A DNA stretch of 32,000 nucleotides from an uncultured Methanoregulaceae archaeon (GCA_963808285.1 CAWEFI010000013.1:187-32186), one strand, 5' to 3'. Numbered from the stretch's first letter, positions 3,825-26,287 are shown. The notes: generated by a model not told the origin, from the sequence alone. Made by a program: numbers and translations.

Positions 3825-4472
3825 ATGCACCACATCGACGTCAGGATGGAGAAGGATGTATACGACGTCAACAACGCGATTGCGGACGGAAACGCCCGGC
3901 ACTTAAAGGAGCACGGAATACGGGCCTTCGACCTTCTCGGCGCGATCGGCTCGGGGAAGACTGCACTCATCGAGCGCCTTGTCCCGCTAATCAAGGCAAA
4001 AGGGCTCCGGGCCGGGGCAATCGCCGGCGACGTGTATGGCGACGACGATTTCCGGCGAATTGTTGCGCAGGGTATCCCTGCCTACAACGCAAACACCGGC
4101 AAGGAATGCCATCTCGATGCGCACCTCGTGGAGCACGCGATCGAGCACCTCCCGCTCGATAAAATTGACATCCTCTTTATCGAGAATGTGGGCAACATGG
4201 TCTGCCCGACCGATTTCCGGCTTGGTGCGGAAAAAAGGATTGTCATCGTCAGCTCGACCGAAGGGGACGACGTGGTAAACAAGCATCCGATGATGTTCAG
4301 GGACTGCACGATCGGGGTCATCAACAAGGTCGACCTCGCACCACTGGTGGGTGCAAACATCGCGAGGATGGAGGCTGACATCCACCGTTACAACCCGAAG
4401 ATGCCGGTCTTTAAGACCAACATGAAGACCGGCGAGAACGTCGCCCCGCTTCTCGATGCCATTCTCGCGTGA
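3825..4472 (+). CDS. hypB: Hydrogenase nickel-incorporation GTPase HypB
   Basis: 215 aa with GAIGSGKT (P-loop), ENVGNMVCP and NKVDL motifs. A TATA-like aagatataaa lies at 3791-3800, about 25-30 nt upstream of the ATG, so the mRNA has little or no leader. Confidence 0.9.
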   Translation: MHHIDVRMEKDVYDVNNAIADGNARHLKEHGIRAFDLLGAIGSGKTALIERLVPLIKAKGLRAGAIAGDVYGDDDFRRIVAQGIPAYNANTGKECHLDAHLVEHAIEHLPLDKIDILFIENVGNMVCPTDFRLGAEKRIVIVSSTEGDDVVNKHPMMFRDCTIGVINKVDLAPLVGANIARMEADIHRYNPKMPVFKTNMKTGENVAPLLDAILA

Positions 4473-4590
4473 AGACCGGCAAAGGACAGTCCTGATCGGG
4501 AAATAGTATAAATAACTCTGAAAGGAATATATAAAGCACCATTTTTTGGAAAGGAATTTTTCCGAAAAAAGATATCAAAGGAGTGACACT

Positions 4591-4968
4591 ATGCTCTGGC
4601 AGGGAGAATCAGTACCAAAGGTAACCGGCGGCAGGCGCCGGCCGGCAGCGGGAAAGCGGAGATTTGAGATCGGGCTTGCGCCCGCCGACACCCATATCGG
4701 GGAAGACCGGACAAAGATGGTTCGTATCATGGGCGGGAACATCAAGGTCCGGTCCATGCGTGCGCAGTATGCAAACGTCACCAAACTCTCCAACGGTGAG
4801 ACCAAAAAAGTGAAGATCGAGAATGTTGAAGAGAACGGGGCAAACCCGAACTATGTCCGGCGGAACCTGCTCACCAAAGGAGCGATCGTCCGGACCGAGA
4901 TCGGACGCGCCCGGATCATGAGCCGCCCCGGCCAGGACGGCATCATCAACGCTGTGTTACTCGAATAA
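4591..4968 (+). CDS. rps8e: 30S ribosomal protein S8e
   Basis: The ATG at 4591 is preceded by aaaggagtga. MLWQGESVPKVTGGRRRPAAGKRRFEIG...NPNYVRRNLLTKGAIV...SRPGQDGIINAVLLE is the S8e signature. The upstream TTG start in the track is unlikely. A TATA-like aatatataaagc lies at 4526-4537. Confidence 0.9.
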   Translation: MLWQGESVPKVTGGRRRPAAGKRRFEIGLAPADTHIGEDRTKMVRIMGGNIKVRSMRAQYANVTKLSNGETKKVKIENVEENGANPNYVRRNLLTKGAIVRTEIGRARIMSRPGQDGIINAVLLE

Positions 4969-4973
4969 ACCGG

Positions 4974-5006
4974 TAAAGGGAATCCCCCCCCTTTTTATCT
5001 TTTTTC
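4974..5006 (+). terminator. Putative rps8e terminator (aaaggg/cccttt stem followed by T5 and T6 tracts)
   Basis: Read directly: gtaaagggaatccccccccttttta tctttttt, immediately after the stop codon. Confidence 0.45.
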
Positions 5007-5103
5007 AGGCAGGTCCGTAACCGCTACGATACCGAGCGGGTTTGAACCCCCGCGAAGGCAGCAGCAATTGTTTTTTTAGGTTAGGCTCTCCCATAGTGTA
5101 TTC

Positions 5104-5527
5104 ATGCGACGGATCTGTTATCGTTACCCGCAACGGGTGGATCTATCGTTTGCGATGGGAATGACGTTTCCCGAAACCCTGAAATATATCGCAGAACTGA
5201 ACGGGCAGGAGTCCACCAAAACCACCGGAAAAGAACTCGTCCGGGTCCGGGTCAAGGTTGAGATCGCGTTAAACCGGGCAGAATTTGGCGATATCACGCC
5301 CGATACCCTGCGCCCCGGGGTTATCACCGAGGCGGTCGATCTTAGGATCTCGGTGCTTGCGCTTGCCCTGCGCGGGACCGGGAAAGTCCCGGTCGCAAAC
5401 GACGTCTTTTACGTACAGGCTCACCGACAAGAACACCTGCACTGACATCGATATCGCAAAGGAAAATGCCGGGGAAGGCCTGGATGCTCTCGATATGAAA
5501 AAGATCCTTCTAGGTACTTCGAATTGA
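5104..5527 (+). CDS. Hypothetical protein; start and 3' frame uncertain (possible frame break about 5400-5425)
   Basis: Frame +1 is protein-like from MGMTFPETLKYIAELNGQES... to ...GKVPVANDVFYV and then stops at 5443-5445. Frame +2 continues with a protein-like LTDKNTCTDIDIAKENAGEGLDALDMKKILLGTSN*, whose stop (5525-5527) overlaps the TTG start of the next gene as TTGA. I recognise no family. Confidence 0.35.
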
Positions 5528-5985
5528 CCCTCCAGATCACGGTGGCTGCACCGTTCAAACACACCCGCAAGACGGGGATGCGCAAGAACGAGCTCGTCTA
5601 TTATTACGCGCTTGACCGCAAGTGGATGAGTACTGACCAGGCGGCTATCCTGCTCAGGCGGGCGGAAGAAGCGGGTCTTATCCGGCAGGAGAACGGAGTT
5701 TTTTCGGTCCTCTTTGACCCGTCGACGATCACCGTCCCCATCGGGTTCAGGCCGACCTCTGCAGTCTTCGAGACAAACGATCCGGCACAGGAGCTGATCG
5801 GCCGGATCGTGAAGGCCCGGGGAGTGCCGGAAACGGATGTGGTCGCCGAGATGAACGCAATTGTCCGGGAACAGTTCGATGGGAATCTGCTGCCCCCGGC
5901 GGCTCTCGTGCTGCTCGCAAAAAAATACCAGGTGCCGTACGAGGACCTGCGCGATGCCCTTTTAGCAGCGTTGAGAAAAGGATAA
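5524..5985 (+). CDS. DUF2240-family archaeal protein
   Basis: 153 aa with a TTG start. LQITVAAPFKHTRKTGMRKNELVYYYALDRKWMSTDQAAILLRRAEEAGLI...FDPSTITVPIGFRP matches my memory of the DUF2240 N-terminal pattern (VAAPFK...EFV..LSLDRxWFSPDQAK). Confidence 0.7.
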   Translation: MTLQITVAAPFKHTRKTGMRKNELVYYYALDRKWMSTDQAAILLRRAEEAGLIRQENGVFSVLFDPSTITVPIGFRPTSAVFETNDPAQELIGRIVKARGVPETDVVAEMNAIVREQFDGNLLPPAALVLLAKKYQVPYEDLRDALLAALRKG

Positions 5986-6095
5986 CGACATCTTTCATTC
6001 TTTTGTTTTTCACAGAGCTTTTTCCGGGTATTTTTTCATTCGGCTCCCGTATTTCCCCAAAAAAGCAATATTAAAGAAAGGTGAAACAGGTACCT

Positions 6096-7458: not shown

Positions 7459-9238
7459 TCACTTGCCCCAAAACGGTTCAGCCTTGCGCCGGATCGCCAC
7501 GAATTCAGCGAGTACTTCCTGCGTACTTACGTTGAGATTTTTAAGCATTTCACGCTCGAGCACCTTCACGTGCCGCTCAGGGAGATCGACCAGCAGGTCG
7601 TCGCCCACGTTCACCTGGCGGCCGACTGTTGCCCCATCGATTGAGATTGCCACTTCGAGGCCGGCGTCCGCCTCCCGGATCGCCTCCTGCCGGGAGCTGC
7701 ATGGACTTCAGGTGCCCGACCTTTTTCCCGTCGAGCCTGACAAGGTCGACGTCGCCCCTGAGTTTTCCGCCCAGCACCCGCACCCCGACCACGGCCGGGT
7801 TGCTCTGCCGGAACACGCAGTCCGGCAGCAGCCGGATCTTTGCCGGCATCATCACATGCTCGAACTGCGCCTTCTCCGCGATCCGTTTCTGCTCGTCGCG
7901 CCACGCGACGTACTGGTCGATGAGCTGGTAGATTACCTGCGCGGAGAATACCTTGACCTGCGTATAGAGCGGGTCTTTGATGATCTCCGCCGCATCGGGA
8001 AGAATGGGGGTATTGAACGACAGGAGCACGCGGAATGCCGGGTTCTTGATCGTCTCGGTGTCGATCAGGTCGTGCCGGCTCACCGGGCCAACCTGTGCCC
8101 GCATCACTTTGATATCTTTACTTTCCAGTTCCTTGCAGAGCGCTTCGAGGGCGCCGATCGTGTCCGCCTTGATCACGATGCCCTCATCGGCAAGGTTGAC
8201 GTGGATCTCCTGCATCTCCTTTCTGATCCGGGCCGCGAGCTCGTCAAAGTTGCCCCGGACGACAAAGAGCGGCGAACCGGCGATCACCTTTTCGAGGCCC
8301 GGGGCGGAGACCTTGATCCCTGCCGCCGCCGCCACGGATCTGACGTGCTCGAACCGGTCCTCAACGAGGATCTCCTTCATCGGATGGGGCTTTAAGAGCG
8401 AGCGGACCTTGGTCACCACTACATCATCCTGCGAGGCCATCGCGATCTCATCGCCAACCGAGAGCGTGCCGTCGTACAGGATTACGTCAAGCGTCGCCCC
8501 GAGGCCCCGCTCCTCTTTTACTTCAAGGACGGTGCCTGCCCCCGGCCCCTCGACCGAAAGCTTGAGTTCCTCGCCAAGATAGCGCTGTGCAAGCCCGATC
8601 ATGACCATCAGGAGGTCGGCAATCCCTTCGCCCGTGTGGGCGCTCACCGGCACGATCGCAAGGTTGCGCCGGAAATCCGAGACTCGATCAAACCGGTCGG
8701 CAGAGAACCCGAGATCCGAGAGGTTGCCCACGATCTCGTAAGTTTTGGTCTCGAGATCTGTTTTAACCCGCTCGTTCTGTTTTGCAAACGTCGACAGGAA
8801 AGACTCGTTCTTGTTGACTCGCCAGCCGTGGATCCGGTCAACTTTTGTCGCCGCGATGACAAACGGCGTCTTGCAGTTCCGGAGGATCTGGAGGGCCTCA
8901 ATCGTCTGGGGCTGGAATCCCTGACTGATATCGACAACAAGGATCGCCATGTCGGCAAGCGCTCCGCCCCGGGCCCGGAGCGTGGTGAACGCGTGGTGTC
9001 CCGGGGTATCGATAAAAAGCAGGCCGGGGATGTTGATCGGGATCTTCTCCATCGACCCGCTCAGATTCCGGATCGCTTCGATGGGAACGATTGTTGCCCC
9101 GATATGCTGGGTGATCGCGCCCACTTCCGAAGAAACCACCGATGAACCGCGAATCCGGTCGAGAAGCGAGGTCTTGCCGTGATCCACATGCCCCATGACG
9201 CACACAATAGGCGTCCTGATCTTCGGGTCTGCCGCCAT
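7459..9238 (-). CDS. infB: Translation initiation factor aIF5B (IF-2 family GTPase); frame broken at ggg 7692-7694
   Basis: The ATG at 9238 gives MAADPKIRTPIVCVMGHVDHGKTSLLD, followed by DTPGH and ATKVD. After ...GHLKSMQL the track ORF becomes Gly/Arg/Pro junk. The true C-terminus QEAIREADAGLEVAISIDGATVGRQVNVGDDLLVDLPERHVKVLE...IRRKAEPFWGK* is in the frame of ORF 7459..7653. The span is 3n+1. Confidence 0.9.
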
Positions 9239-14386: not shown

Positions 14387-15467
14387 CTATTTTCCTGACT
14401 GTGCCCGTCCGATCCGGCCGGCGTACTTCTGCATCCCGTACCCGAGCGCGAGCACGGCAAGGCAGGTGACGGCAAGGACGACCCACTGCATCGCTCCCGC
14501 GGTGCCGACCGAGATCCGGGCAACAAGGTTGAGCGGGTTGTACGGCAGGGCAAGGACCAGCAGCAGGAGCACGACGAGGGCAGTCGAGAAGACGAACTGC
14601 GCCGCCGTCCGCTCCCGGTAGTAGAGGGCGCAGAACGCTCCAAGGAGGATCAGGAGCAGGGTCCCGAGGGTGACGTGGAGCAGGATGAGAAGGGGGTCGG
14701 CGATCGCGATCCGGTTGGCGGAGAGGAGAAGGATCCATGCTCCGGCCTGAACCGGCACGATGACCGTGCAGGTGAGCACCTTGCCCCAGACCATCTCGGC
14801 GAACGTGACCGGGGTTGAGATGAGCGTCTCGAGCGTCCCGTGCTGGTACTCCTCGGTGATGAGGTCGATGACAAGCGCAGCAGAAAGGATCCCCGGCAGG
14901 AACACGAGGAGCGGGACCAGAAGGCCATACACAAACCCGTAGAAATCTCCGATGCCTGATGAGGCCGGGACCTGGAGCGGGACCGGCGCAACGTCGAGAC
15001 GCCCGGCCCGGACCCCCCTCAGATCCTGCTCGGTACTGCAAAAAGACCGCCTTGAGCCTCACGTCCACGACCGCTCCCTGGAGGTCGTCGGTGAGCGTGT
15101 AGAGCGTTATCTTCACCGGGTCATCGGAACCCGCTGCAGTGTCCGGGACGTAGAGGACGGCGGAGAGCCTGCGCTCCTTTAAAAGTTCGACCGCGGTCGA
15201 GAGGTCCATCCGGTGCACCCTGAGGTCGGAGGTACCCTCGAGGTACCCGAGCAGGGGCGTATCGTTTCCCGCGTACGCGATGTCGTACCGGAAATGGGAA
15301 TACCCCGAGAGCGCCGCAGGGTCGTACATGGACGTTAGCCCAACCATCAAAAAGGACGAGAAGAGCGCGATGAAGACCTGCAGCAGGACCGCAAGGAGGA
15401 TCGTCTTTTCGGATGCGAGCCCGAAGAACTCTTTTTTTGCCACCACCGCGACGTGCCGGGCCTTCAT
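14387..15467 (-). CDS. ABC-2 type (NatB-like) transporter permease; frame broken at about 15032
   Basis: The ATG at 15467 overlaps the upstream gene's stop as ATGA. MKARHVAVVAKKEFFGLASEKTILLAVLL... is followed by a large outside loop. After ...RLKAVFLQY the protein continues in another frame (EQDLRGVRAGRLDVAPVPLQVPASSGIGDFYGFVYGLLVPLLVF...ITEEYQHGTLETLISTPV...), which is ORF 14387..14932. The span is 3n+1. Confidence 0.75.
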
Positions 15468-17271
15468 TTCATCCACCCCAAAATGAAGTACAGGTTATAG
15501 CAGCAGTGGAGCACGGTCGCGGCAATAAGGCCGGGGATGAACCATTTCCTTCCCCCGACCTTGAGCGAGCAGGCAACAATGAGGATGCAGGCGAAGTGGA
15601 GCAGGAGGGGCATCCAGAGCACGCCGAGCGACAGAAAGAGGACGCTTCCGAAGACCGATTTGGTGATCTGGGCAAGCGTGGCAAAGAGGAGGAGTTTCTC
15701 GCCCACAAGAAACCCGACCGCGGTGGCGGCGCAGGCGAGCACGAGGTGCTTCCACGAGAAGAACGCGGGGTCCCGCATGAAGAACGTGTAGATGCCCAGT
15801 GCCTTTGCCATCTCCTCGATGAGTGCCGCGAGCACGAGCAGGAGCACGAGCGAGTACGGCATGGGCAGGTTGAAGAAGACAACAAGGCCCATCATCTGGG
15901 CCATGAAGACGAACGGGATCGAGAAGACCGCGAGCAGGAACAGCGCCGCGTACGGGTGCTCCTGCGGGAGGAGCCCGGAAAGGAACTCGCGGATCCGGGG
16001 GAGGAGCTTCTTTTCCGAGAAGAGGCGCTCCTCGTTAAAATTTTTTGCCGCGATGTAGAAGAGGACGGCGGCAGTCAGCCAGAAAAGTGCCGTGGCATAG
16101 ACATAGTCCGACACTGTCCACGCGGTTCCCTGGATGGTGAGCACGATCAGCGTGAGCGGTGAGACGAGGCTGATCACGTGGACGTTGGCAAAGATGGAAG
16201 GGAAAAAGAGGTACGACGTAGCGACCGTCGAGAAGAAGATGGAGATGAACGAGAGCTCCTTGAAGCTCCGGGCGAGCATCCCGATGACGAGAGCGTTTGC
16301 GAGAAAGAAGATGATGATCGGGACAAGGGGCAGGAGGACGAGCGGGGACGCCTGGATGTAGACCGTGATCCCGGTGCAGATCGCAAGCATCCCGAGGAAG
16401 TACGGGAGCATCTTTCCGATAATGATCGACGAGGTCTTCACCGGCAGGGAGAGGAGGGGCTCGCCCTGCCGCTCAATCCGCTCGTTCATGATGCTCATCA
16501 TGAAAAACTGGGAGGTGAAGTAGAGCGGGAAGATGAAGACAAAGACCAGGATGATCGAATCGAAGGGCAGGGGGGGGAGAGCTGATCCGGGATCATGAAC
16601 GGGCCCATGGCGGCTTCGCCAGGAGAGAGCACATCCGTGTACCGGGCGACCTGCGAATTCTCCTGAGACGATACAGCCAGTTCCTGCCGGATCTCGTCCT
16701 GCGTGATGCCAAGCGTGGCCGAAGGTGTCGGGACGTTCTCGACCTGGCCTGACGGGACCGGCGGTCCCCTTCCGGGGGCAACCTGCACGTACTGGCCGTT
16801 CTGGTTGGCGGAGAAGTTGAGCTCGCTCTTGACTGACTGGGTATCGATCCAGAGCGGGAACGCGGCAAAGAGGTCGCTTTCGTTCGCATAGACGCTGTTT
16901 TTGTACTGCGCATAGTCCCGTTCGAGAGCGTTTTCCCCCGACTTCCCCTTCCCGGTCGGGCTTGCGGAGACGACCCCCTTGCTGATGACGAGATCGTACG
17001 CCCCATTGTCGGCGGCGAGCACATGGTCGCTCTCCTGGTAAACCGTGAACCGTGCATCGGGCGTAAAGAGAGCGGCGACCTTCGGGTCGTCGACCCCGAT
17101 CCGGTACATCCCGTCCTGGATGTGCAGGCCGCTCTCTGCGGCAAAACCGGTGACAAGGATAAGGAGGACGAAGAGGACGATCGCGACCGGCAGGAGGTTA
17201 CGCGACATGACCGAGAAGGTCTTTTTCACTTCCCAGCGTGCGATGGTCGCGATATCCCTGCCTGCACTCAA
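15464..17271 (-). CDS. Fusion protein: NatB-like ABC-2 permease plus a C-terminal PrsW-like intramembrane protease domain; frame broken at the G8 run 16570-16577
   Basis: A probable TTG start at 17271 gives (M)SAGRDIATIARWEVKKTFSVMSRNLLPVAIVLFVLLIL. About 190 aa of outside loop follow. After ...FMIPDQLSPP the protein continues in ORF 15464..16501 (LPFDSIILVFVFIFPLYFTSQFFMMSIMNERIERQGEPLLSLPV...). The last roughly 150 aa carry EEMAK, FLVGE and HCCYN, matching my memory of the PrsW motifs EExxK, FxxxE and HxxxN/D. Confidence 0.7.
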
Positions 17272-20269: not shown

Positions 20270-20650
20270 TCACCCTTTCCGGGGGCCTCGGTGAACACCC
20301 TTCCGGTTTTTTGGGGGGTACAACGGCTGTGGCACCTGTGTGGTGATCGTATTGATGGCATCTGTCGTGAGCCGGCCCTTGAGGCCGATCACGTCGCCTG
20401 ACCGGATCACGTTGACCTTTGCGGTGAGGACAAAACTTTCGCTGAAGAGATCGAGGCCCCCCTCGCTAAAATCGTCAAGCCCGAGCGGGATGCTGGGGGC
20501 ACCGGACGGGGGTTTGCTGCTGACCGGGCAGACGCAGACATCCCCGTTTTCCCGTGCCGAAACGACCACGGCGGGCCGGGTCTTTGTGTCGCGCCGCTCA
20601 TCAAAGGGAACCGGGGCAAGGATCACATCACCCCGCACAAAACGTCCCAT
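20270..20650 (-). CDS. PemK/MazF-like toxin-fold protein, with no recognisable antitoxin gene
   Basis: The ATG at 20650 gives MGRFVRGDVILAPVPFDERRDTKTRPAVVVSARENGDVCVCPVSSKPPSGAPSIPL...SFVLTAKVNVIRSGDVIGLKGRLT. This fits the PemK pattern (RGDI..v.f......K.RPavVvS......v.v.PiTS....... ...S.v....v.ti....i....G.l). It ends 20-55 nt upstream of the RFAP synthase start. Confidence 0.6.
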   Translation of the reverse strand: MGRFVRGDVILAPVPFDERRDTKTRPAVVVSARENGDVCVCPVSSKPPSGAPSIPLGLDDFSEGGLDLFSESFVLTAKVNVIRSGDVIGLKGRLTTDAINTITTQVPQPLYPPKNRKGVHRGPRKG

Positions 20651-20814
20651 ACCCGGATAATCCGGCTTTTCAAGAGCATAAGGCAATTGATCAGTTTTTC
20701 AGTGTGGGCTCCTTTTTCCGGTCGCACAACACAGGTAAGACGCGCCACACGGCCATGAGAAACCCTTTACATCCGGGCGGTGGATGATCGCATCAGTACA
20801 CGGTGGTGAAAACA

Positions 20815-21441: not shown

Positions 21442-22020
21442 TCATTTTTTTGATATCGATGAAAGCCAGGCACGGGGGCCTTCAGCCCGGGTGCGGCTCT
21501 CGAAGACCGCCGGCCTGATGTAATTGATAGACCACCCCTCCCGGAAGCTGTCCTGTATCTCTCTCTTTGTTATCCTCCTCGGGCCGTATACGCCGGGTTC
21601 CAGTTCGGAAAAGCAGAGCATGAAGTATTTCCCGGCCGTGGACAGGATGGCTGCAAGGTTATCCACGAAGACCGGGCGGTCTTCATCGGACAGGGTATGG
21701 AAGAGCCCTGAATCGGTGGCGGTATCGAATTTCCTGTTGAGCCTTGCGAGGTCCAGTGCGTTCAGGACAAGAAAATGCACCGGGAGTCCTCTTCCGGCAG
21801 CCTTCTCCTTTGCCTTCTGGATCGCGAGGGGGGCGGAGTCGATCCCCCACACCTCATGTCCTTCCCCTGCAAAGAAGAGGGCATGCTCCCCGGTCCCGCA
21901 TCCTATGTCCAGGACGGATCCCATTATCTCTCCCCTCCGGGCCAGCTCAACGAATTCCTTCTGGGGCCGGCCGATGTCCCAGGGAGGGGTGCCCTGGTAT
22001 GCCGCGTCAAAGAAATCCAT
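21442..22020 (-). CDS. Class I SAM-dependent methyltransferase
   Basis: 192 aa with TPPWDIGRPQKEF, motif I VLDIGCGTGEHALFFA, VWGIDSAPLAI and FDTATDSGLFHTL. Confidence 0.85.
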   Translation of the reverse strand: MDFFDAAYQGTPPWDIGRPQKEFVELARRGEIMGSVLDIGCGTGEHALFFAGEGHEVWGIDSAPLAIQKAKEKAAGRGLPVHFLVLNALDLARLNRKFDTATDSGLFHTLSDEDRPVFVDNLAAILSTAGKYFMLCFSELEPGVYGPRRITKREIQDSFREGWSINYIRPAVFESRTRAEGPRAWLSSISKK

Positions 22021-22128: not shown

Positions 22129-23253
22129 TCACCTCAGGTTACCACCGGGTATCAATTCATCCTCAATAGTGTACGTTTTTCCCGAGTACATGGTGACGAT
22201 GACCTGAAGCCGATCAGTTCCGCGGGTACCCTGCAGTTTCACCTCAGATCCCATGTGGTTGAAGTCAAGTTTTCCCGTGGTGACTGTGCCATCGGATCTC
22301 GTCAGGATCACCTGGTTATCCTGCACGAGTCCCTGCCCGGGACCCCCTTCGAATATGATATTTACCATCAGGGTGACAGGATCCTTATCAGCGACGACAA
22401 TGAGCTGGGTAGTATTCGGCAGCGCCTGTGTCGGGCCAGCTGTGAGGACTACCGTATTTATCGGGGCATTTGAACTCCGGTAATCCACCGCGGTCGTGGG
22501 GATCGGGGCCGGTGCCCCAATACCCCAACCGCCGTGGATGCCTACGGGGTTGAGTAACTGGGTGGGGATAATCGGGAGGACGAGGTACAGTGCAGCGAGG
22601 ATGAGGATCACAATAACCGCACCGATAATCCTCCTCCTCTTGACCCGAGAGGATGGCGGGGTTGCCGCAACGGATTGTTGTGTCGGGGTCCGTCCGGCCT
22701 CTGGCGGCGGAGGAGATATTGGATTCAAAGACACCGGTGCCCCGCATTTTTCACAGAACCTGGCGATTGGTGAGAGGGGGGTGCTGCATACAGCGCAGAC
22801 TACCATGTCCTCGCGCGGTAAAAGAATATCCCCGATGATCCCGACAAGTTCATCGATATGCTTTTCAAGGGGAGGCGTAAAGGCGTCCAGCCAGTTCGGG
22901 ACGCTGATCAGGTACTCCATCGATTTCGAAGGCTGGATATCTTCAATGCGGAACGGAACGATAATGCGCCCCTTATTCACGGCATTCGTCAATTCCCTGA
23001 GCACGTGAGGGGAATCGTTTGAATGGGATGAAAAGATGAGCACCATCGCACCGCTCCTTTCGATCCCTTCGATAATTGCCTTCGGAAATTCCGTGCCCGG
23101 CGGCGCATCCCGGGGGGCAATCCAGCACCTGAATTCATGGGATTCCAGCGCTGCGCACACGGCATCGGCTACTCGCTTATCCGGCTTGGCATAGCTGATG
23201 AAGACATCGTAGAGGATACGACGGGACCCGGAAAATTCATCAGAATCTGGCAT
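22129..23253 (-). CDS. TIR-domain membrane protein: cytoplasmic TIR, zinc ribbon, single TM, outside beta-rich domain
   Basis: Starts at the ATG at 23253 (the track start at 23298 is a GTG). The TIR signature is YDVFISYAKPDKRVADAVCAALESHEFRCWIAPRDAPPGTEFPKAIIEGIERSGAMVLIFSSHSNDSPHVLRELTNAV, with the Glu codon at 22993-22995. The ribbon is CAVC-x10-CEKC. RVKRRR is followed by IIGAVIVILILAALYLVLPII (22567-22629). The C-terminal roughly 145 aa are paralogous to the protein at 13847..14365. Confidence 0.8.
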   Translation of the reverse strand: MPDSDEFSGSRRILYDVFISYAKPDKRVADAVCAALESHEFRCWIAPRDAPPGTEFPKAIIEGIERSGAMVLIFSSHSNDSPHVLRELTNAVNKGRIIVPFRIEDIQPSKSMEYLISVPNWLDAFTPPLEKHIDELVGIIGDILLPREDMVVCAVCSTPLSPIARFCEKCGAPVSLNPISPPPPEAGRTPTQQSVAATPPSSRVKRRRIIGAVIVILILAALYLVLPIIPTQLLNPVGIHGGWGIGAPAPIPTTAVDYRSSNAPINTVVLTAGPTQALPNTTQLIVVADKDPVTLMVNIIFEGGPGQGLVQDNQVILTRSDGTVTTGKLDFNHMGSEVKLQGTRGTDRLQVIVTMYSGKTYTIEDELIPGGNLR

Positions 23254-23335
23254 GCACTGTCCGAACCCGTAACATGTGGATCCGGAATCTCCATTCACTG
23301 TTTCTTGGTCATTTCCGGACTATTATCTTTTACGT

Positions 23336-24430
23336 TCACCCGAAACGCACAATTTTAAGTTGAACCTTTGCAAGGATCCCCGGCAGCGTCCGTATGGCGT
23401 TACGGTCTTTCTCTTTCTGCTGCTCAGGGAGCGGTTCCCATGGCATCAGGCAATCATGCGTCCTGAGTTTTTCGTTCGTCTCAGGGCCCTGCACCCAACC
23501 TCTTTTCAGGTGCTCGTCCATCCAGCGCTCGTGTTCCATCTGTGCGAGCATTTCAATCTCGGCCGGCGTGAATTCAAACAATGTTTCATTGGCATCGGTG
23601 GAAATCCCGATTGCGCAGTGGATCACCTGCAGTTTTTTACAGATGTCATCCGCTTGTTTGAGGTTTGCTTCCTGCAAATGATGGGAGAGCTCGTTCCAGG
23701 GGCGCATGGACGGTTTTGTTTGCGGGGTCAACCCAGCATTTTGCTGCTGTGCGCTGTATTCTTCGTGGATTGCGCGTGCCACCAGTTCGTGCGTCCCTCT
23801 GACGCCAACGTCATAATATTTTTTCAACATCATCCTGATCTTTTCTGAATCAATCCAGCCTTTATCGATCTGAGCTACAATCCGATCTATCTCTTTTCCC
23901 TGCCTGATGATCTTGTGGGAGACTGCTTTGTCATCCAGCATATCGCAGAGCCCGATAATAATCGCAACAGGGTTGCGAAGGTGATCCCCCAGTGTCGCGA
24001 ACTGTTCGATATTTTTCTCAATCTGTTCGTATGCATCCTGTCTCAACCGGTTCATCTCGACCTGGTCGGTTACGTCGAGGGCAAAGATCATAACCCGGGA
24101 ATTTTTCTCTTTCCTGTCCTTGCAGGGGATGATGCAAAATTTCAGGCTCTTTGCGCCCGAATGAGGCGTATCAATCCTGCGGATGATCCCGTTCTTTGTC
24201 TCGCCGGATGAGATGGCGAGGCGGATATCGTGGAAAAAATCCTCCCTGTCATCCGGAAACAGATCGCCGATTGTTCGCTTACCGGAAGGGGTTCCGGCAG
24301 GTGCCAGGAGATCCGTGCATGATCTGTTTTCCCAGAATATGGTGCCGCCGGCATCAGTAAAAAAAACCAGCACCGGCAGCGAATTTAAAACCTGTTCGAA
24401 ATCGACATTTTCGTCTTCTGATGGTTTCAT
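23336..24430 (-). CDS. PAS sensor / DHp-like helix with degenerate H-box / C-terminal RyR-domain protein (no HATPase domain)
   Basis: Starts at the ATG at 24430 (the track start at 24574 is a TTG). A TATA-like atatacgatatta lies about 60-70 nt upstream. The PAS domain is LPVLVFFTDAGGTIFWENRSCTDLL...KFCIIPCKD...VMIFALDVTDQVEM. The helix carries FATLGDHLRNPVAIIIG. The RyR-like repeats are LVARAIHEEYS...RPWNELSHHLQEANLKQADDICKKL and EIEMLAQMEHERWMDEHLKRGWVQGPETNEKLRTHDCLMPWEPLPEQQKEKDRNAIRTLPGIL. Confidence 0.75.
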   Translation of the reverse strand: MKPSEDENVDFEQVLNSLPVLVFFTDAGGTIFWENRSCTDLLAPAGTPSGKRTIGDLFPDDREDFFHDIRLAISSGETKNGIIRRIDTPHSGAKSLKFCIIPCKDRKEKNSRVMIFALDVTDQVEMNRLRQDAYEQIEKNIEQFATLGDHLRNPVAIIIGLCDMLDDKAVSHKIIRQGKEIDRIVAQIDKGWIDSEKIRMMLKKYYDVGVRGTHELVARAIHEEYSAQQQNAGLTPQTKPSMRPWNELSHHLQEANLKQADDICKKLQVIHCAIGISTDANETLFEFTPAEIEMLAQMEHERWMDEHLKRGWVQGPETNEKLRTHDCLMPWEPLPEQQKEKDRNAIRTLPGILAKVQLKIVRFG

Positions 24431-24834
24431 ACCCTGATTCGCACCTGCTATCGTAATTATTGGTACTATGCAGATGTCCTGGTTAATATCGTATATGCAT
24501 GACAAAACCCGGACCTGGTCCTTCGACTGATGATCAAGATCGGCCGGAATATTTTTCCTGGCCACAATCAACAAGGGTTACGTTGTTTACGAGGGGTGAC
24601 CACAATTTCACCACGTTAAAATTCTCGAGATAACTGCAAGTGCACCAGAACTAAAAAACCACTGCAGTTGCCTAAATCGTAAGCCTCAGGTATAGCCCCT
24701 ACCACTATGCATAATTTTAGTTTGAAATTTGGGGGGTGAGATCCCGTATCACGCACGCTTAACCCGGGACCGGGTATCGACGCTATTTTACCATACCTGT
24801 GCCTGCTTTCCGGCGCACGCGATCAATAGGAGAA

Positions 24835-25029
24835 ATGATGGAAAATTTGACATCTAAACCTGACGCGTGTACGCTCTGGACGTCCTATGCTTGCTCTGCA
24901 CAAGGATCTTTGGCTTGCTCAAATCAGTACCTGCGCATTGGTGCCTGGCTGCAGGATTTCCGATGCGGTAATTCTGTTCGGCCAAAGACGGCCGGGGAGA
25001 CCTCACAACATTTTTTGGATTCTTTTTAG
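24835..25029 (+). CDS. Speculative small Cys-rich ORF (64 aa)
   Basis: An ATG is preceded by ataggagaa. MMENLTSKPDACTLWTSYACSAQGSLACSNQYLRIGAWLQDFRCGNSVRPKTAGETSQHFLDSF has four Cys. I recognise no family, and it sits in an otherwise stop-rich AT-richer spacer. Confidence 0.15.
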   Translation: MMENLTSKPDACTLWTSYACSAQGSLACSNQYLRIGAWLQDFRCGNSVRPKTAGETSQHFLDSF

Positions 25030-25127
25030 CTATGTTAAGAGGCAGGGCCGATGAGGGCTAAAGAAAACCTGTACTGTCCGGTTCACCGGAGCCCTTATGG
25101 GATCCCTCGCGAGAATGAAGAAGAGAA

Positions 25128-25466
25128 ATGCCACGCTGCGATATCTGCGGGAAAAATGTCTCGCTCCCGTTCCACTGCCAGTACTGCGGAAAAAACTTCT
25201 GCGATGAGCACCGGCTGCCGCCCAACCATGCATGCGCCGGCCTTGCGGAATGGAAAAAGACCCCGGCGCCCGGTGTGGGCATCCGGTACGGGCCGGGCGG
25301 TGCTACTCCGTACGGGGGCGGATATGCAACGGTACCACCCGGTAAAAAACCCGGCCGGCTTTCGGGCGGGTGCATCCCTTTCCTGAAAATCGCCGTAACG
25401 GTTATCGTGATCATCTTCATTGTACTTCTCTTCCTGGGCCTGAGCGGGCATCTGCTCTCCGGGTAA
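25128..25466 (+). CDS. AN1-type zinc-finger protein with a C-terminal membrane anchor
   Basis: MPRCDICGKNVSLPFHCQYCGKNFCDEHRLPPNHAC fits the AN1 pattern Cx2Cx9-12Cx2Cx4Cx2Hx5HxC. A Gly/Pro-rich linker and the hydrophobic helix FLKIAVTVIVIIFIVLLFLGL follow. Confidence 0.8.
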   Translation: MPRCDICGKNVSLPFHCQYCGKNFCDEHRLPPNHACAGLAEWKKTPAPGVGIRYGPGGATPYGGGYATVPPGKKPGRLSGGCIPFLKIAVTVIVIIFIVLLFLGLSGHLLSG

Positions 25467-25543
25467 AAAGGACCGGCCCCGGGACCTCCCGGTTCTGCCT
25501 CCCAAACCTTCAAAGAAGATCAAGAGCCAACCCTGTATCCGGT

Positions 25544-26287
25544 ATGCCAGCCGCACATTCCCGCACATTCCGGGATGGAAAAACGCTTGCCGGGGAACTC
25601 CTTGCCGCGATGCACCGGGTCGGGGTGCTCGGGGTCACGTACCCTGAGAATTACTATGAGGAGCTCATCGCGAAGTACGAAAAGGGTGGCGTCCCCTACC
25701 CACACATTCTTTCGATCCTTGGCGAGCCGCGGATCAGGGGGCATTTTTTTTATCCCCGTATGCTCCGGCACACCGGCCCGTTTCTCGATTACGGCTGCGG
25801 GACCGGCGACAATATCCGGCAGCTCTTCCGTGACGGTTTTTCCCGGGAACTGATCACCGCTTTTGATCTCACGTGGGAGAGCATCAGCCTCGGGTTCGCC
25901 CTGTACCGTGACGAGGATGCGATCCGGGATCTCTTCGTGGTGAACGATTCGTTCCCGTTTGGGGAAGAGACATTTGATACGATCTATTCCGGGTCCGTTA
26001 TCCACGTGATATCAGATACGGATGAACTCGAGAACTACCTGAAAAATGCTGCGAAAGCCCTCAGGCCCGGCGGGGTATTCTTTGGCTCAACGCTCGGGAT
26101 CGAGGATGGCGGATCCTGCGAACCGGATGAGAGAGGGCCTCCGCGGGTGATGCCCCGGACGGAGCTGATCCGGCACCTGGTAGCCGCCGGGTTTGTACAC
26201 CCGGATATGGTAAAGCGGCTCCATGAGGCGCACACGCCGGGGGACCAAAAGTGCGTGTTTGAGTTTTGTACAAAAAAAGAAGGATGA
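25544..26287 (+). CDS. Class I SAM-dependent methyltransferase
   Basis: Starts at the ATG at 25544. Motif I is FLDYGCGTGDNIRQL, followed by FDLTWESI, FDTIYSGSVIHV and LRPGGVFFGST. Codons 3-9 overlap a 10-bp tandem duplication. Confidence 0.8.
   Translation: MPAAHSRTFRDGKTLAGELLAAMHRVGVLGVTYPENYYEELIAKYEKGGVPYPHILSILGEPRIRGHFFYPRMLRHTGPFLDYGCGTGDNIRQLFRDGFSRELITAFDLTWESISLGFALYRDEDAIRDLFVVNDSFPFGEETFDTIYSGSVIHVISDTDELENYLKNAAKALRPGGVFFGSTLGIEDGGSCEPDERGPPRVMPRTELIRHLVAAGFVHPDMVKRLHEAHTPGDQKCVFEFCTKKEG
25551..25570. repeat. Exact tandem duplication of a 10-mer (ccgcacattc x2)
   Basis: Read directly: 25551-25560 is identical to 25561-25570. Confidence 0.9.

Follow-up and report, generated by a model that had tools for sequence, protein, structure and literature searches.

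A co-inherited gene pair of Methanoregulaceae encoding a membrane TIR protein and a PAS-RyR protein: a candidate two-part TIR signalling module

TIR enzymes and signals derived from nicotinamide adenine dinucleotide (NAD) have a central place in bacterial, plant and animal immunity, and the receivers of such signals known from bacteria are SLOG, Macro and a few other domains. The closest described systems are those of the Thoeris type, in which the TIR protein ThsB is combined with a ligand-gated effector and for which a December 2025 survey gives types I-XI and further predicted types, 29 predicted system types being listed (bioRxiv 10.64898/2025.12.03.692087). On the phage side, the protein RyDEP, a member of the RyR family (PF02026), acts as a glycosidase, cleaving the cyclic adenosine diphosphate ribose (cADPR) isomers 2'cADPR and 3'cADPR; it contacts the ligand through H75, W78, H100 and D117, of which H75 and D117 form the catalytic dyad, and most of the phage homologues tested bind 2'/3'cADPR, two characterised ones with nanomolar affinity and no cleavage (PMC13232231, a preprint of May 2026). 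Here we analyze a stretch of 32,000 nucleotides (nt) from an uncultured Methanoregulaceae archaeon (GCA_963808285.1 CAWEFI010000013.1:187-32186; hereafter, the window), in which the region 22129-25127 contains two adjacent genes, one for a membrane TIR protein (gene A) and one for a PAS-RyR protein (gene B). The tight co-inheritance of the two genes is the firmest result of the analysis. As judged from sequence, the pair is probably a variant of TIR (Thoeris-like) signalling that is new in its RyR-domain partner and in its receptor-type transmembrane TIR protein.

The pair resembles Thoeris in its compact operon, in a TIR domain with an intact catalytic Glu, and in a partner with a type of domain that has been linked experimentally, in phage proteins, to the binding of TIR-made cADPR isomers. 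It differs in that the sensing domain of the partner is of the RyR/R12 type, and not SLOG, Macro, DUF2270, DUF6650, SLATT or another of those listed in the survey; in that the gene A product is predicted to be a transmembrane receptor with an ectodomain, whereas ThsB is soluble; and in that gene B carries no cell-killing module, whereas sister systems (see below) contain channel-, AAA- or RelA/SpoT-type modules. The host, a methanogenic archaeon, is different as well, and so is the location, the locus belonging to a conserved core site and not to a defence island. The main text of the survey contains neither 'RyR' nor 'PAS', and the supplements examined, which include one table only in part, lack both 'RyR' and 'PF02026' (10.64898/2025.12.03.692087). 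A literature search found no other paper tying cellular RyR-domain proteins to TIR.

Gene B and RyDEP have in common the PF02026 domain, the H-W-H-D residues at equal spacing, and a similar predicted structure. In contrast to RyDEP, a homodimer of single repeats encoded in a phage NAD+-salvage operon, gene B is cellular, has both repeats in tandem on a single chain, carries PAS and DHp-like domains as fusion partners, and lies beside the gene of a presumed signal-making TIR protein; rather than in immune evasion, its expected role would lie in receiving or managing a signal that the cell itself makes. There is also a likeness to the animal SARM1/CD38-cADPR-ryanodine receptor axis and to Toll-like receptors, namely, the order of ectodomain, single helix and cytoplasmic TIR, the R12-type receiver and, in some sister systems, the fusion of RyR to a K+ channel pore with TrkA_N. 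The homology, however, is limited to the TIR and RyR domains, and there is no Ca2+ channel; the likeness at the level of the pathway is a suggested one.

The co-inheritance was examined from both sides. In a TIR-anchored survey with one genome per species, the PAS-RyR gene is located directly upstream of the TIR gene, on the same strand, in 18 of the 19 orthologous loci for which upstream sequence was available. In the remaining locus (L002, 8880-10015, a Methanomicrobiales metagenome-assembled genome, syntenic site), two tRNA-like genes and a small antisense open reading frame (ORF) replace the PAS-RyR gene, of which a C-terminal remnant of 39 amino acids (aa) is kept upstream of the intact TIR gene, so that the absence reflects secondary loss. 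When metagenome loci were anchored on PAS-RyR, the TIR gene was found downstream in 37 of the 41 that could be evaluated, and the divergences of the two proteins are correlated (Mantel r = 0.875, p <= 0.0005, 37 distinct pairs). Of the 17 Methanoregulaceae loci that were compared, at least 14 have the pair in a single, shared syntenic context, which in most Methanoregula is conserved over +/-10 kb, next to TFB and other housekeeping genes. The pair of the window lineage occupies a non-canonical site: the window, L001 and L011 have only the pair itself, ~2.5 kb, in common with the other genomes, which implies that it moved as a unit at least three times. Matches between the flanks of the window and those of L011 were rejected as synteny because they are scattered, low-identity paralogue matches. 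Taken together, genes A and B very probably form a functional unit. An earlier note on this stretch, made from the sequence alone, had proposed a two-gene module and named observations that would speak against it; we found instead that the genes occur together nearly everywhere, that the pair moves as a unit, and that the catalytic Glu is intact.

Both genes are on the minus strand, with gene B upstream of gene A. The features of the pair and of the adjoining spacer, with window coordinates, are the following:

22129..23253, minus strand: gene A, TIR protein with a single membrane pass, 374 aa counting the stop codon
22132..22488, minus strand: predicted extracellular C-terminal beta-sandwich of gene A, ~119 aa; 8-9 strands, predicted local distance difference test score 82-92 (AlphaFold)
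22573..22629, minus strand: predicted transmembrane helix of gene A, IIGAVIVILILAALYLVLP; hydropathy 2.96 over 19 aa, KRRR just before
22732..22797, minus strand: zinc ribbon of gene A (CxxC...CxxC); Pfam Zn_Ribbon_1 3e-5, DZR; Pro-rich linker after it
22819..23211, minus strand: TIR domain of gene A, predicted to be cytoplasmic; Pfam TIR_2 3e-22
23254..23335, minus strand: intergenic spacer of the pair, 82 nt
23336..24430, minus strand: gene B, predicted cytoplasmic PAS / DHp-like / tandem-RyR (R12-like) protein, 364 aa, with no HATPase domain
23345..23803, minus strand: tandem RyR (Repeat12-like) module of gene B, residues 210-362; Pfam RyR 5e-16, above the cut-off
23858..24070, minus strand: DHp-like helical hairpin of gene B, residues 121-191; Pfam HisKA 26.9 bits, exactly at the cut-off
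24074..24373, minus strand: PAS domain of gene B, residues 20-119; Pfam PAS_4 2e-5, PAS 4e-5
24431..25127, no strand: non-coding spacer, 697 nt, that separates gene B from the divergent zf-AN1 gene

The gene A reading frame is open at 22129-23298, and the start supported by homologues is the ATG at 23253: at least 120 full-length homologues, with 43-98% identity, have an N-terminus of the MPDSDEF type, and P0001, 98% identical to gene A, is called at 374 aa. A GTG extension to 23298 is possible and is without support among homologues. For gene B, open at 23336-24574, the homologues (343-386 aa) start near the ATG at 24430. Methanoregula and other members of the Methanoregulaceae are the source of every close homologue. 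Given these starts, the genes are exactly 82 nt apart, in agreement with the gene positions and the gap given earlier. Among orthologues, the spacer between the two genes ranges from 15 to 223 nt, with many between 33 and 82 nt; spacers as short as 15-35 nt have no room for a separate promoter, which suggests co-transcription of the pair and speaks against the TATA-like element that the earlier note had placed upstream of each gene.

The catalytic Glu of the gene A TIR domain (E102 of the 389-aa ORF, codon 22993-22995, inside the motif LRELT) is invariant in 23 homologues, is present in 10 of 10 aligned related TIR domains, and lines up with the Glu of the flax L6-type TIR motif LMEL; the earlier note had read the NADase site as apparently intact. 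The AlphaFold model is confident over this domain, and the best Foldseek matches are the TIR domains of SPARTA, SARM1, AbTir, BtpA and TLR, the fold agreeing with that of NAD-cleaving TIRs. The zinc ribbon that follows is variable, being present in some homologues and missing in others. Gene A has one transmembrane helix, modelled by AlphaFold at residues 220-240, and the basic residues on its N-terminal side place, by the positive-inside rule, the TIR domain in the cytoplasm and the C-terminal domain outside; the predicted topology thus has the TIR domain and the zinc ribbon inside the cell and the beta-sandwich on the surface. The beta-sandwich domain is conserved (mean column identity of 70% in 11 homologues). 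It had no match in Pfam or among PDB sequences, and a Foldseek search with the whole gene A model returned TIR matches only, assigning no fold class to the beta-sandwich, which belongs to no described family.

Two proteins related to gene A are encoded in the metagenome-assembled genome that holds L001 (L017, 9980-11635, plus strand, and 14508-15533, minus strand). One has the TIR-zinc ribbon-transmembrane helix order with a Cys-rich repeat ectodomain, and the other combines a double zinc ribbon and a transmembrane helix with the beta-sandwich ectodomain of gene A and lacks TIR, indicating shuffling of domains on a common membrane scaffold. Some orthologous operons contain an extra short gene for a TIR-only protein (183 aa, TIR_2 9e-23) between the PAS-RyR gene and the membrane TIR gene (L003, 8650-9200; L008, ~8692-9117; and the metagenome loci L104, L105, L111, L118 and L129).

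Gene B has no predicted transmembrane helix. Its PAS domain matches that of Rv1364c (Foldseek, E 2e-8), and PAS and DHp together were aligned by Foldseek to LOV-histidine-kinase chimeras. As in PAS-containing sensor histidine kinases, PAS is followed by a HisKA/DHp hairpin with an H-box (DHLRNP within GDHLRNP; His150, codon 23981-23983). In contrast to these kinases, HATPase_c was detected neither by Pfam nor in the structure model, the chain ending in the RyR module in the place of the ATPase, and 5 of 27 homologues have Q, S or N at the position of the H-box His; we therefore rejected the possibility that gene B encodes a genuine sensor histidine kinase.

The RyR module of gene B resembles the Repeat12 tandem of ryanodine receptors. 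Comparison with PDB sequences using phmmer retrieved the RyR1/2/3 repeats and a Bacteroides 'putative ryanodine receptor' (2.5e-20 to 1e-9), and Foldseek aligned the model to the whole human RyR3 Repeat12 tandem over ~187 columns; the predicted structure also resembles phage RyR proteins. The first repeat is degenerate (H222, Y225, W245, N256), with two of the four pocket residues lost. The pocket of the second repeat is complete, consisting of H300 (23531-23533), W303 (23522-23524), H325 (23456-23458) and D342 (23405-23407), all invariant across 27 homologues. The spacing of these residues, +3/+22/+17, is that of H75/W78/H100/D117 in RyDEP (PMC13232231), and they align with the H..W..H..D residues of the animal RyR repeats, the Bacteroides RyR protein and a Ruegeria phage RyR protein. 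The idea of the RyR module as a possible nucleotide binder, raised in the earlier note, gains support from the 2026 work on RyDEP (PMC13232231).

In a near-identical assembly (a 40,297-nt ENA contig), the PAS-RyR protein is called in two pieces, P0128 and P0317, of 243 aa (99% identity) and 113 aa (100% identity), which suggests a frameshift or pseudogene, or else an assembly error, in that strain.

The association of TIR with RyR extends beyond the orthologs of the window pair. Among the 80 loci with the TIR domains most similar to that of gene A, 32 have a RyR-domain gene, each within ~4 kb of the TIR gene, and 14 of these 32 are not orthologous to the window pair, coming from other Methanomicrobiales, Chloroflexi, a planctomycete and a Terriglobales (Acidobacteriota) genome. 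The RyR partners have diverse architectures: TrkA_N-RyR, Ion_trans_2 (K+ channel pore)-TrkA_N-RyR, AAA-RyR, RelA_SpoT-SLOG-RyR and RyR-TPR-S-guanylate cyclase. Each partner TIR protein contains a single membrane helix between TIR and a predicted non-cytoplasmic, sensor-type domain, in one of two layouts, either TIR-helix-X, with a LamG-like domain, choline-binding/PPC repeats or WD40 as X, or signal peptide-X-helix-TIR, with TPR or PPC as X. The catalytic Glu is retained in all the partner TIR proteins that were aligned. Starting from RyR similarity alone, we found a TrkA_N-RyR protein whose gene has a TIR-helix-WD40 gene directly after it, the two overlapping by 4 nt, and a second TrkA_N-RyR context in which a WD40 protein, cut at the contig end, precedes the RyR gene. 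A RyR-profile search for TIR-RyR fusions yielded only short, stand-alone RyR proteins in the best 120 matches. Linkage of RyR to TIR is not universal, given that stand-alone RyR and some TrkA_N-RyR proteins have no TIR neighbor.

The best explanation, in which we have moderate confidence, is that the pair is an operon for a two-part TIR signalling module, with gene A as the receptor-like generator and gene B as the RyR receiver; that the link between them is a TIR-derived nucleotide read by the RyR pocket has, in our estimate, an even chance of being correct. Under this scheme, a surface cue would drive self-association of the gene A product, and this clustering would switch on the TIR active site with its intact Glu, which would convert NAD+ into a nucleotide derived from ADP-ribose, for example, a cADPR isomer. 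The second RyR repeat of gene B, with its H-W-H-D pocket, would receive this nucleotide. The gene B protein, probably a dimer formed through the DHp-like hairpin and with PAS as a second input, would then either relay the signal to partners or destroy the nucleotide, resetting the system. A relay could run through the dimeric DHp-like hairpin. The residues in question are common to RyDEP homologues of the sponge type and to catalytic ones, so that relay and hydrolysis by gene B cannot be told apart from sequence; the sister systems, with RyR at the C-terminus of channel- or enzyme-like proteins, favor a receptor role. As for the function, we favor surveillance of the envelope or of viruses. 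Whereas the earlier note cast the PAS-RyR protein as sensor and the TIR protein as effector, the evidence fits the reverse direction, the membrane TIR protein being more likely the sensor and generator and the RyR protein the receiver.

Several observations weigh against this scheme. The biochemical support comes from phage proteins, described in the un-reviewed RyDEP preprint, and not from a cellular TIR-RyR pair. The ligand of gene B need not be a TIR product, because RyR R12 domains also bind adenosine triphosphate (ATP) and diphosphate (ADP), as the PDB titles indicate: structures of RyR3 Repeat12 with ATP, ADP and AMP-PCP are among the Foldseek targets (6uhh, 9l9b, 9ls7). Gene B consists of PAS, DHp-like and RyR modules only, with no recognizable output or killing domain. 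The four exceptions among the PAS-RyR-anchored loci (L103, L106, L108 and L123) form a separate PAS-DHp-RyR subclade, with ~50% identity and a different neighborhood, in which no TIR gene is found nearby. A TIR neighbor is likewise missing in 2 of the 4 sampled TrkA_N-RyR contexts and in all 3 of the sampled contexts of stand-alone RyR proteins. When the pair was run through PADLOC, only weak TIR-domain matches (to the SAVED-TIR, Ago-TIR and ThsB models) were obtained, and none for gene B; no relatives of the pair were detected among the viral contigs searched; and in most Methanoregula the pair is surrounded by a conserved housekeeping neighborhood, not a defence island.

The last three of these points bear on defence in particular. 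The weak matches for TIR and the lack of any for gene B led us to reject assignment to a known defence system, and viral origin or carriage of the pair was rejected given that viral contigs contain no relatives. The enrichment in defence islands and the patchy distribution expected of a Thoeris-like system are not seen, and the stable core-genome location argues somewhat against an abortive-infection or other defence role. Such a role is plausible by analogy with Thoeris, and is unsupported by core location, PADLOC or viral association.

Among the alternatives, the one that survives best, although we consider it rather unlikely, reverses the role of gene B: the TIR protein would be a membrane-triggered NADase effector, acting by using up NAD+ or by swamping the cell with products of the cADPR type, and the PAS-RyR protein a PAS-tuned glycosidase or sponge that clears these products in unstimulated cells, as could be likened to the ring nucleases of type III CRISPR or to phage RyDEP. 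Consistent with such a brake, the equivalents of the RyDEP catalytic dyad, H300 and D342, are invariant; gene B is upstream in the operon and would hence be made first; and the lack of an output or effector domain in gene B keeps the possibility alive. The TIR gene of L002, which stays intact after the loss of gene B, can be cited in favor of a brake as well. Against it, the presence of all four pocket residues in non-catalytic sponge homologues and in animal RyR means that catalysis cannot be read from sequence. Moreover, hydrolysis of cADPR alone would not restore NAD+, and in the paralogous systems RyR, as a C-terminal module of channel- and enzyme-like proteins, looks more like a ligand sensor attached to an effector than like a scavenger.

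The direction originally proposed, in which PAS (responding to a metabolite or viral cue) and RyR (responding to ATP/ADP or another adenine nucleotide) make gene B an intracellular sensor that activates the membrane TIR protein as an abortive-infection NADase, seems unlikely. It draws on the crystallization of RyR3 Repeat12 with adenine nucleotides, on PAS being a classic sensor domain, and on the frequency of TIR NADase effectors in defence, to which the weak PADLOC matches could be added. Against it, every TIR protein of the clade has its own sensor-type extracytoplasmic domain behind a membrane helix, which makes TIR the sensing component, while the RyR partners in sister systems are those that carry effector-like modules (K+ channel pore, AAA, RelA/SpoT), and there is no evident contact surface between the two proteins. 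A non-enzymatic pairing, in which TIR would serve as a protein-protein scaffold, as in animal TLR adaptors, in an envelope-signalling pair that uses no NAD-derived messenger, is very unlikely, for although Foldseek also matches gene A to the scaffold TIRs MAL, MyD88 and TLR1/2 and the pair occupies, in Methanoregula, a conserved site of the core genome, the catalytic Glu is invariant in the 23 orthologues and in all paralogues examined, as expected of an enzyme, and gene B keeps a complete nucleotide pocket.

If the two-part module with gene A as generator and gene B as receiver is real, a cellular RyR receiver would add a new class of receptor for TIR signals, phage RyDEP would acquire a cellular counterpart, possibly the source of the phage proteins, and the long-debated idea that RyR repeats sense cADPR-type molecules would become testable. 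The layout of ectodomain, one helix and TIR would be the first analogue among prokaryotes of the topology of Toll-like receptors to have a defined downstream partner. Candidates for TIR signalling in methanogenic archaea are rare, and the pair, apparently a stable part of the core genome, would be one of them. We also put forward, tentatively and as a doubtful rather than a probable extension, that transmembrane TIR proteins of Toll-like topology produce a messenger of the cADPR family that is read by RyR/R12, this being an ancient and widespread prokaryotic trans-membrane route with K+ channel/RCK, AAA and RelA/SpoT outputs, in which the PAS-DHp adaptor of Methanoregulaceae may feed phosphorelays. 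Such a route would be the evolutionary antecedent of the link between cADPR and the ryanodine receptor in animals, and methanogens would have, in the window pair, a conserved second-messenger system whose role is physiological and not solely antiviral.

The composition of the locus was examined with regard to the suggestion, based on its AT-richness, that it was acquired laterally. The G+C content of the window is ~58% overall, and gene B together with the upstream spacer makes up its lowest-GC 1.1 kb (0.476-0.505 against a mean of 0.578, sd 0.033), in line with the earlier claim that the upstream half is AT-richer; the five G+C counts made by hand were all exact. The G+C contents at third codon positions (GC3) of the two genes, 0.59 and 0.62, are the two lowest among 32 ORFs (0.725 +/- 0.064). 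The G+C content of the pair follows that of the host genome in every lineage, however, from 0.38 in a 41% GC genome to 0.60 in a 60% genome, and GC3 of the pair is typically 0-1.7 sd under that of the flanking genes, also at the conserved, vertically inherited site, so that the deficit in the window, about -2 sd, is the strong end of a family-wide tendency. Recent lateral acquisition is thus unsupported, the low GC3 being a family trait and the site being syntenic in most relatives. Nor does the locus qualify as a laterally acquired genomic island: a sister metagenomic contig (L081), 98.2% identical across 13 kb, has the same gene order around the pair, and a search of the locus for an integrase, flanking repeats, att sites derived from tRNA genes or an adjacent tRNA was negative, as the earlier note had likewise seen no mobility marker.

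The 697-nt spacer upstream of gene B (24431-25127) is unusually long and AT-rich (GC 0.479), with no conservation beyond the species, no homologue-supported ORF and no repeats. An RNA element was considered and rejected, there being no credible Rfam match. The operon promoter is presumably located in this spacer; a scan with a bacterial promoter/terminator model, which is not applicable to archaea, gave a result at the level of shuffled sequence.

Stand-alone tandem-RyR proteins of ~162 aa, encoded in Acidobacteriota-like contigs (L175-L179, gene 4001-4489), adjoin type VI secretion genes (VasE/TssK, DotU, IcmF) rather than TIR genes. The PAS-DHp-RyR genes of the subclade with no TIR gene nearby in L103 and L106 (gene 4968-6080) are flanked by a 681-aa zinc-ribbon protein, a PP2C-like phosphatase and coiled-coil, PspA/ESCRT-III-like ORFs, these identities being read from the sequences and not from a Pfam scan.

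In the window, the pair is flanked by a methyltransferase ORF at 21442-22020 and a zf-AN1 ORF at 25128-25466, both confirmed by Pfam, and the neighbors include methyltransferases, nitroreductase and rubrerythrin. A PemK/MazF-type toxin ORF (20270-20686, minus strand; Pfam 3e-8) is located ~1.5 kb from the pair, and no obvious antitoxin ORF was noted beside it. On the other side, in the interval 25128-26287 (plus strand), the zf-AN1 ORF overlaps, in a different frame, a methyltransferase ORF (25370-26287). The sister contig L081 has 1-nt indels near 25183 and 25423, and there the zf-AN1 and methyltransferase sequences are called as one 377-aa gene, which implies that one of the two sequences carries a frameshift or a sequencing error.

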